Assembly (NCBI GenBank): GCA_023386455.1
Contig: JAEWJO010000803.1
Span: forward strand, 1,069 to 65,068
Length of the DNA: 64,000 nucleotides
Direction of reading: 5' to 3'
DNA from: Pseudomonadota bacterium
GTDB lineage: Bacteria; Myxococcota_A; Polyangia; Haliangiales; Haliangiaceae
A program made the translations under genes and the position numbers. Below, in pieces: positions 12,120 to 12,211 of the stretch (the first letter of the stretch is position 1; the number at the start of each line of letters is the position of its first letter). The notes below the pieces were generated by a model. That model did not search any database. It was not told the DNA's origin and saw only the letters and a list, made by a program, of their open reading frames with translations.

Positions 12120-12136
12120 TGCGCAGCGCTTGCGAA
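12120..12136. promoter_or_regulatory. Palindrome-family site TGCGCA-N5-TGCGAA
   Basis: tgcgca gcgct tgcgaa. Its centre is 29 bp from the next site. Confidence 0.4.
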
Positions 12137-12148
12137 TGCCCTCCGTGG

Positions 12149-12165
12149 CGCGCACCGAATGCGCG
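12149..12165. promoter_or_regulatory. Palindrome CGCGCA-N5-TGCGCG
   Basis: cgcgca ccgaa tgcgcg; perfect arms. 19 nt upstream of the -24 element at 12184. Confidence 0.5.
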
Positions 12166-12183
12166 AACGACCCGCGGGAATCC

Positions 12184-12199
12184 CGGTACGCGAGTTGCT
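12184..12199 (+). promoter_or_regulatory. Sigma-54-type element upstream of membrane protein 12212
   Basis: CGGTAC-gcgag-TTGCT. GC to ATG is 14 nt. Part of the duplicated 81-bp cassette. Confidence 0.55.
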
Positions 12200-12211
12200 G
12201 CACCGTGGAGC

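Follow-up and report, generated by a model that had tools for sequence, protein, structure and literature searches.

At the glnAp2 promoter, two dyads about three helical turns apart nucleate an oligomer of the activator NtrC that acts on the -24/-12 promoter by DNA looping, and classical enhancers of this kind lie at about -80 to -150. In Mycobacterium tuberculosis, the haem kinases DosS and DosT, which sense oxygen (O2), nitric oxide (NO) or carbon monoxide (CO), act through DosR, a LuxR-type sigma-70 activator, to control Usp, a hibernation-type factor, CBS proteins, nitroreductases and acyltransferases. ZraR of Escherichia coli occupies the spacer that separates zraP from the divergent unit zraSR (PMC8249747), and NorR recognizes tandem sites with a GT-N7-AC core upstream of sigma-54 promoters, a change from GT/AC to GG/CC having been used as the knock-out of its E. 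coli sites (PMC1274295, PMC2831303). Here, we consider two similar segments of 81 base pairs (bp), at 12120–12200 and 55455–55535 of a 64,000-nucleotide (nt) stretch of contig JAEWJO010000803.1 (the window, part of the metagenome scaffold ENA ERZ28598376). The segments are two instances of one regulatory design, and their two genes are very probably co-regulated; as a whole each segment is probably best explained as one half, comprising enhancer and promoter, of a compact control region from which sigma-54 promoters face both ways. The system is predicted to be of the known enhancer-dependent sigma-54 kind, from whose described members it would differ in its motif, distance, regulon size, globin-coupled sensor and ATG position.

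Aligned without gaps, the two segments agree at 57 of 81 positions and at 35 of the last 41, the latter figure reproducing that of a preliminary description of the window, whose claim that the segments are collinear block for block was likewise confirmed by the alignment. When the two intergenic regions are aligned locally the score is 60, far above chance, since 2000 shuffles gave a mean of 16.6 ± 2.5 and a maximum of 29; the next-best place elsewhere in the window scores 35. The identity is distributed by blocks, being high in the half-sites (5/6, 5/6, 5/6 and 6/6), the -24 box (5/6) and the -12 box (6/6), and low in the loops within the dyads (2/5 and 0/5), between the two sites (5/12) and in the leader (5/11). 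Each segment reads, in order, two GCGCA-N5-TGCGM dyads (29 bp from start to start), a 20-nt spacer and a sigma-54 promoter with GG-N10-GC. Locus 2 is symmetric, with two dyads 14 nt apart and, on either side of them, a promoter at 20 nt from the nearer dyad; at locus 1, 31 nt separate dyad 1 from the minus-strand GG. The features of the two loci are:

12121–12135: locus 1 dyad 1, GCGCAgcgctTGCGA, the distal putative activator site, kept in the ortholog from L123 (Kofleriaceae GCA_013368795.1)
12150–12164: locus 1 dyad 2, GCGCAccgaaTGCGC, extending to 12167 with its GAA flank and ending exactly 20 nt upstream of the -24 GG
12166–12178, plus strand: first copy of the 13-mer AACGACCCGCGGG, within the 20-nt spacer at about -44 to -32
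12185–12199, plus strand: predicted sigma-54 promoter GGTACgcgagTTGCT of a 268-residue membrane protein, kept with its spacing in L123, L124 and L125/L126
12075–12089, minus strand: divergent predicted sigma-54 promoter GGTGCgaaccGTGCA of a DksA-like gene (ATG 12061; gene 11684–12061)
12212–13018, plus strand: gene of the 268-residue membrane protein (memb268; ATG 12212), outside any Pfam family and common in Kofleriaceae
55456–55470: locus 2 dyad 1, GCGCAgtgacTGCGA, separated by 20 nt from the GG that belongs to the DUF4389 promoter on the minus strand
55485–55499: locus 2 dyad 2, GCGCAtgccgTGCGC, extending to 55502 with GAA and preceding the flavodoxin promoter GG by 20 nt
55501–55513, plus strand: second copy of the 13-mer AACGACCCGCGGG
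55520–55534, plus strand: predicted sigma-54 promoter GGTATgcggcTTGCT of a Flavodoxin_5 gene (ATG 55547; gene 55547–56116)
55421–55435, minus strand: divergent predicted sigma-54 promoter GGCACatcgcTTGCT of a DUF4389 gene (ATG 55408; gene 54791–55408)

Both segments thus lie in divergent regions with an opposite sigma-54-type element, that of the DksA-like gene at locus 1 and that of the DUF4389 gene at locus 2, as had been described. The coding sequences downstream are unrelated, the 268-residue protein being without a Pfam match and the other protein belonging to Flavodoxin_5, which supports the earlier view that regulatory DNA has been conserved and not a gene duplicated.

As the sign of a sigma-54 promoter we took GG and GC doublets 10 nt apart in a match to TGGCAC-N5-TTGCW. 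This is found in cGGTACgcgagTTGCTg (12184–12200) and cGGTATgcggcTTGCTg (55519–55535), whose core forms are GGTAC-N6-TTGCT and GGTAT-N6-TTGCT, and likewise in the opposite-strand elements of both loci, tGGTGCgaaccGTGCA and cGGCACatcgcTTGCT. Neither intergenic region holds a sigma-70-like promoter or a terminator. The window also encodes four sigma-54 activators (Sigma54_activat), with the loops GSFTGA, GAFTGA (in two of them) and GAYTGA. On these grounds we infer that the promoters depend on sigma-54.

As a correction to the preliminary description, the cassette is not peculiar to the two loci, which are the tightest match within a larger family. GCGCA-N5-TGCGM has 25 strand matches in the window where 3.06 ± 2.06 would be expected, a number never reached in 100 shuffles. 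The dyad lies upstream of 15 sigma-54 promoters, forms tandem pairs with a 29-bp spacing at three control regions and is usually followed by GAA after the right half-site, TGCGC plus GAA recurring in most of the regulon promoters. In all, the design is found at about ten control regions with 15 promoters across the 64 kb, which form a hypoxia/denitrification island; the genes concerned are ccoNO, a 34-residue membrane open reading frame (ORF), the operon of an activator itself (see below), a hibernation factor, dksA, memb268, nirK, a 2-oxoacid acyltransferase-like gene, rhodanese, alcohol dehydrogenase, a 137-residue membrane protein (memb137), DUF4389, flavodoxin, an acyltransferase–epimerase pair and Usp. 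The likeness of the two segments would thus follow from their both obeying one design used at about ten control regions, and the co-regulation of the two loci proposed earlier is very probable, as members of one regulon, given the same dyad and sigma-54 design at these regions and in the orthologs from relatives.

The spacing between dyad and promoter falls into discrete classes. In a scan of the distances from dyads with at most one mismatch to a downstream GG-N9-TGC, for which the background is 0.27 pairs per distance, 20 nt was found at six promoters (12185+, 45275+, 46642+, 54749-, 55435- and 55520+), 49 nt at three, where it represents the distal dyad of a tandem, and a distance of 60 nt at four promoters (4047+, 10670+, 46546- and 12089-). 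Tandem inverted repeats that lie upstream of -24 and are common to several promoters, as expected of bacterial enhancers, occur both in the window and in the orthologs. A weaker, overlapping dyad with 3 mismatches of 10 (GCGCG-aacga-CCCGC), offset by 11 bp, was considered and is not claimed. The other control regions of the family are:

3942–4061: region between ccoNO and the 34-residue ORF, with a dyad at 3972–3986, the ccoNO promoter GG at 3942 (minus strand) and a second GG at 4047 (plus strand) that has the dyad 60 nt upstream
7247–7295, plus strand: region upstream of the activator gene, with dyad ACGCAgtggcTGCGC, 19 nt and promoter GGCACgtcgacTGCA, a candidate autoregulatory site
10595–10685, plus strand: ribosome hibernation factor, with a dyad at 10595–10609, 60 nt (kept in L123), GG 10670 and ATG 10698
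13027–13140, plus strand: nirK, with a dyad at 13027–13041 lying 84 nt upstream of promoter GGTACgggggTTGCT (13126–13140), and ATG 13154
45240–45289, plus strand: 2-oxoacid dehydrogenase acyltransferase-like gene, with a dyad, 20 nt and a predicted sigma-54 promoter
46532–46656: alcohol dehydrogenase and rhodanese, sharing a dyad at 46607–46621 that lies 20 nt from GG 46642 (plus strand) of the former and 60 nt from GG 46546 (minus strand) of the latter
54735–54784, minus strand: memb137, with a dyad at 54770–54784, 20 nt, promoter GGCATgcgccTTGCT (54749–54735) and ATG 54722
59290–59446: acyltransferase–epimerase pair and Usp, with dyads at 59303–59317 and 59332–59346, 29 bp apart, between the divergent promoters of the former (GG 59290, minus strand) and of Usp (GG 59432, plus strand; ATG 59460)

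The 34-residue ORF, MKKPKDPWAIPLEVILWTTYSVGLIMVMVVVLMN, lies at 4075–4179 on the plus strand, divergent from ccoNO and with its own sigma-54 promoter, and encodes a single-pass membrane protein.

A third regularity concerns the start codons. Window-wide, an ATG follows the -12 C of GG-N9-TGC after 13 nt in 11 cases and after 14 nt in 8, other offsets having about 2.5, and both ATGs of the pair (12212 and 55547) come 13 intervening nt past the -12 C. The 14 nt before an ATG given in the preliminary description hold when counted from the -12 C to the A, whereas only 11 nt intervene between the ends of the segments (12200 and 55535) and the ATG. Promoters that exemplify the rule of 13–14 nt are 4047+, 10670+, 12089-, 12185+, 13126+, 17617+, 33915-, 45275+, 46546-, 46642+, 54749-, 55435-, 55520+, 59290- and 59432+, and the same spacing is seen in relatives. 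No Shine–Dalgarno sequence stands at a usable distance in these leaders, the only GGAG-like runs being 1–2 nt from the ATG and too close by the usual rules, and the N-terminus of memb268 (MRSR..PF) is kept in an ortholog of 79% identity. Together, the spike of ATGs at 13–14 nt, the absence of a usable Shine–Dalgarno sequence and the conserved N-terminus point to leaderless-type transcripts: the sigma-54 transcripts would be leaderless or nearly so, starting within about 2 nt of the ATG, and the recurrence of the spacing suggests that this is systematic in the organism. Our searches of open literature turned up no account of leaderless transcripts from sigma-54 promoters, and an ATG at the predicted start site would, if true, make an unusual case for the translation of such transcripts.

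The promoter design also bears on annotation, since it fixes start codons that the gene caller had put inside promoters, e.g., that of dksA at 12091. The gene caller starts dksA at a GTG (12091, minus strand) and the small ORF at 4045 (plus strand), both within predicted sigma-54 promoters; the ATGs at 12061 (dksA) and 4075 (small ORF) suit the spacing of 13–14 nt better than the called starts.

Homologs of memb268, flavodoxin and DUF4389 come mostly from Kofleriaceae/Haliangiales assemblies, and in the orthologous intergenic regions, whose comparison bears out the claim of conserved regulatory DNA, the dyad and sigma-54 design is kept, e.g., in L123, L125/L126 and L003. The memb268 ortholog of L123 (79% amino-acid identity) has both dyads, a 14-nt gap, the 20-nt spacer and the promoter CGGTACgcagcTTGCTG (CGGTAC-N5-TTGCTG), followed by 13 nt and the ATG, with the divergent promoter 30 nt from dyad 1; the hibernation factor ortholog of the same genome retains the 60-nt class. 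In L125/L126, the memb268 orthologs (59% identity) have one dyad, placed 20 and 19 nt from two divergent promoters. At the DUF4389 ortholog of L003, two dyads form a symmetric bidirectional unit; at that of L130 the dyad stands 19 nt away and at that of L129 farther upstream, the ATG lying 13 nt past the -12 C in all three. The design recurs at the acyltransferase ortholog of L044 and the lipoprotein ortholog of L058, and the flavodoxin ortholog of L127 has tandem dyads 39 nt upstream of CGGTACgagcgTTGCTG (CGGTAC-N5-TTGCTG), again followed by 13 nt and the ATG. At 82–126 of L123, tandem GCGCA dyads 30 bp apart stand upstream of a quinol-type NO reductase (qNOR) gene, by which the dyad regulon would extend to NO reduction in that closest relative.

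These observations are consistent with a mechanism in which the 15-bp inverted repeats GCGCA-N5-TGCGC (usually with GAA), 29 bp apart, would be the upstream sites of one enhancer-binding protein of the NtrC family. Activator dimers on the dyads would assemble into an ATPase ring and remodel the sigma-54 holoenzyme at the -24/-12 elements on either side, the proximal dyad ending 20 nt upstream of the -24 GG with its centre near -53, and the transcripts would begin on the ATG, which lies 13 nt past the -12 C, or no more than about 2 nt from it. Tandem dyads joined to a -24/-12 promoter liken the arrangement to glnAp2 and to classical enhancer-dependent sigma-54 activation. It differs from glnAp2, where the sites lie beyond -100, in its proximity, in a distance that is set to the base pair in different promoters and different genomes, and in its bidirectional units. 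As a tentative extension, on balance doubtful, the Kofleriaceae may use a compact cassette with the site locked 20 or 60 nt from -24 and often shared by divergent promoters, which would activate at short range with little or no looping and drive a leaderless stress regulon; the 13-mer, together with an inverted repeat at -24 described below, could tune the short-range geometry. If true, so short and base-pair-fixed an enhancer distance would be an unusual case of how an activator reaches the polymerase.

Several points weigh against this explanation. The dyad centre near -53 is much nearer than classical enhancers, and the geometry of activation is accordingly uncertain. The gene rpoN is not within the 64 kb. 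Counted from a -12 C in its nominal position, the ATG has its A at +3, so that strict leaderlessness needs a start shifted by 2 nt, and the start of the response-regulator gene as called (7430) is off the 13-nt position. The design by itself also leaves 13 identical spacer bases in just these two promoters unexplained. Finally, a pattern scan of a genome collection (dyad, 19 nt and sigma-54 promoter) was dominated by chance coding matches, with at least 118 stretches returned, mostly in the coding sequence of unrelated GC-rich taxa, so that the counts of the regulon are those of the window; among the matches listed, only seven, all Myxococcota (L003, L024, L042, L044, L058, L088 and L110), were promoter-like.

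The position near -53, closer than that of classical enhancers, and the fact that dimeric helix-turn-helix proteins in general bind palindromes such as this one of 15 bp would also suit a dyad that is the operator of a non-activator factor (a repressor, or a protein of FNR/Rrf2 type) set over sigma-54 promoters whose enhancers lie elsewhere or are dispensable. We regard this as improbable: no other shared enhancer-like motif was seen at these promoters, the dyad does not overlap the -24/-12 elements, and the several discrete distances (20, 60 and about 85–114 nt), with two divergent promoters served by one site, fit an enhancer and not a polymerase-occluding repressor.

If the dyad is an activator site, its binder may be encoded in the window itself, where the following genes are relevant:

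7430–8839, plus strand: response-regulator sigma-54 activator, AtoC/ZraR/NtrC-like, with GSFTGA and HTH_8
8836–9999, plus strand: protoglobin-coupled histidine kinase, adjoining the activator gene
15978–17528, minus strand: NorR equivalog (675 bits; cut-off 476), neighbouring the scdA1 promoter 17617 (plus strand)
33961–35529, plus strand: second NorR equivalog (664 bits; cut-off 476), neighbouring the nitroreductase promoter 33915 (minus strand)
20502–21467, minus strand: PspF-like activator with only AAA+ and helix-turn-helix (HTH) regions, and GAYTGA instead of GAFTGA

In favour of a NorR regulon that includes the cassette, the window encodes two NorR equivalogs, its neighbourhood is NO-related (nirK, two ScdA/RIC genes, hemerythrins and nosZ) and NorR typically has tandem sites ahead of a sigma-54 promoter. 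With norVW of E. coli and norAB of Ralstonia, the locus indeed shares tandem inverted repeats upstream of a sigma-54 promoter, NO-related genes and a regulator nearby (PMC2831303, PMC1274295). The motif, however, makes it hardly probable that the dyads are NorR enhancers. GCGCA-N5-TGCGC reads GC-N7-GC in the register where NorR requires GT-N7-AC, and the sites number two here and three there. The cassettes have two scattered GT-N7-AC matches each within 130 nt upstream (the window average being 0.35 per 130 nt) and no tandem triplet, and the other GCGCA-dyad promoters are likewise without triplets. Conversely, the sigma-54 promoters of scdA1 and of the nitroreductase gene, which stand beside the norR genes and have no GCGCA dyad, carry three GT-N7-AC boxes each, at -86/-67/-43 and -93/-74/-50, with the identical spacing of 19 and 24. 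NorR was rejected as the dyad binder on this account, and the window appears to hold a separate NorR regulon beside that of the GCGCA dyad. The sigma-54 promoter 21686 (plus strand) of an Mrp/complex I-like operon, divergent from the PspF-like gene, has neither GCGCA dyad nor NorR boxes.

By elimination of the other activators and by synteny, the response-regulator activator at 7430–8839 is the best candidate for the dyad binder. A dyad precedes the sigma-54 promoter of its gene by 19 nt, and its ortholog in L123 (81% identity, with a nearly identical HTH) lies beside dyad-controlled genes. The globin-coupled histidine kinase would phosphorylate this activator and so make the regulon responsive to O2, NO or CO, a signal suggested by the protoglobin sensor domain of the kinase. 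Against NCBIfam models, the activator scores best with AtoC (522; cut-off 714) and ZraR (478; cut-off 760). The nearest architectural precedent is ZraR at zraP/zraSR, also a response-regulator sigma-54 activator with one cluster of sites between divergent units, one of which is its own operon (PMC8249747). The differences from that system are that the present protein falls below the equivalog cut-offs and is not an ortholog, that the motif is another one, that about 15 promoters in 64 kb would be served whereas ZraR is reported as a single-target regulator, that the kinase is globin-coupled and not a periplasmic zinc sensor, and that the ATGs lie at the predicted transcript starts.

The identical bases of the spacer call for separate treatment. 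The preliminary description had taken the 19-mer TGCGCGAACGACCCGCGGG for a functional block. In the window it is found at 12160 and 55495 and nowhere else, also when up to 3 mismatches are admitted. Its first 5–8 nt (TGCGC plus GAA) are the right half-site and flank of dyad 2, so that it is not a separate unit; for the remaining 13-mer a separate function is a candidate, and the idea of an extra functional block is supported in part at most. The 13-mer agrees at 13/13 positions between the copies, against 17/43 over the other unconstrained blocks, and there is some local constraint at it or a short conversion or copying tract. In a strain contig of 99% identity (L128) the whole cassette is identical and hence uninformative, and no flavodoxin ortholog closer than 66% identity was found that could serve as a close relative for comparing the 13-mer of locus 2.

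The reading of the first description makes AACGACCCGCGGG, which contains the palindrome CCCGCGGG, a distinct element, bound by a second protein or bending the DNA, in a subset of the promoters only. Besides the contrast of 13/13 with 17/43, the memb268 ortholog of L123 agrees with this, having kept 9/13 positions of the 13-mer (AAC...GCGGG) and 14/20 of the spacer, as does an inverted repeat of 4–5 bp that adjoins the -24 GG of both segments and likewise that of the DUF4389 promoter and of L123 (12174–12185, 55508–55521, 55435–55449 on the minus strand and about 5964–5974 of L123). Such repeats, whose 3' arm ends in the -24 GG, take the forms CGGG-N3-CCCG, CCGCG-N5-CGCGG and CCGGG-N5-CCCGG. 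The enrichment of these hairpin-like repeats, for which no claim is made, is marginal (7/41 promoters vs 7.6% in shuffles, P about 0.03), no binding protein offers itself as a candidate, the 13-mer is seen neither at the other promoters of the regulon nor at the ortholog promoters of L125, L127 and L003, and a scan of metagenome contigs for the 13-mer with a promoter gave only 3 chance matches, AT-richer and without homology to proteins of the window. A distinct element is therefore rather unlikely in our view.

Common descent as the source of what the two copies share beyond the family (13-mer, CGGTAY and TTGCTG) would complement the regulon model and explain the 13-mer without a function, if the promoter-proximal segment was copied or gene-converted when flavodoxin became independent. 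In relatives, flavodoxin lies downstream of DUF4389 in one operon, from which it follows that its own promoter is secondary in this lineage. The spacer, which agrees at 17/20 positions between the pair, agrees at only 1–11/20 with the other four 20-nt-class promoters of the window, none of which has the 13-mer, and the flavodoxin ortholog promoter of L127 is also without it. On the other hand, the similarity is block-wise, with loops, spacer and leader at the random level where a recent copy should be similar throughout, a conversion tract of 19 nt would be unusually short, and the flavodoxin of L127 already has its own CGGTAC-N5-TTGCTG promoter in another lineage. We hold such copying to be possible and less probable than not.

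The organization of the flavodoxin genes in relatives differs in a further respect. Flavodoxin is there fused to a C-terminal membrane domain homologous to memb137 (proteins P0122, P0123 and P0131; L129 and L130), usually downstream of DUF4389 in one operon, and in the window memb137 (54309–54722, minus strand), DUF4389 and flavodoxin are separate, each with its own dyad and sigma-54 promoter.

A GC-rich, palindrome-containing sequence present twice might, lastly, be a dispersed repeat, of the kind of repetitive extragenic palindromes or miniature inverted-repeat transposable elements, or a structured RNA. This is very improbable. The 19-mer has only two copies in the window and no true ones in the metagenome scan, the similarity is confined to blocks, both copies keep the same register with start codons and promoters, and the orthologous positions are kept in relatives, so that dispersal, named earlier as a possible refutation, was not seen in the window or in that scan. 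As to a structured RNA, the dyad region between divergent promoters should not be transcribed, and Rfam gave 0 matches in the whole window. The explanation as enhancer-plus-promoter halves of bidirectional sigma-54 control regions remains the probable one.

The motif GCGCA-N5-TGCGC(GAA) would be a previously undescribed activator motif, defining a candidate O2/NO-responsive sigma-54 regulon in uncultured Kofleriaceae. It would link the cbb3 oxidase, nirK, hibernation, DksA, Usp, flavodoxin and membrane proteins of no known function, and thereby give the last a physiological context. The island around it encodes ccoNO, ccoG, PAS histidine kinases, the response-regulator activator with its protoglobin-coupled kinase, a CBS protein, the hibernation factor, DksA, nirK-nirV-sco1, the two NorR equivalogs, two ScdA/RIC proteins, hemerythrins, the PspF-like activator, nosZDFY, a molybdopterin oxidoreductase, Usp and multihaem cytochromes.

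In content, with a tandem-domain Usp, hibernation factor, CBS protein, nitroreductase, acyltransferases, cbb3 oxidase, nirK and nosZ, the island resembles a dormancy/hypoxia regulon, and most of the genes of these types in the window stand behind sigma-54 promoters. The likeness to the DosR system is a functional analogy by gene content and not homology: the same kinds of genes are all in the window, those for Usp, the hibernation factor and the acyltransferase with dyad promoters and that for the nitroreductase with a promoter bearing NorR boxes, whereas the output here would be a sigma-54 activator with another motif. Two pairs of paralogous stretches, at 70–74% nucleotide identity, were also noted in the window: 7915–8567 and 34626–35278 are the AAA+ regions of the response-regulator activator and of the second NorR, and 17694–18129 and 42077–42509 belong to the two ScdA/RIC genes.

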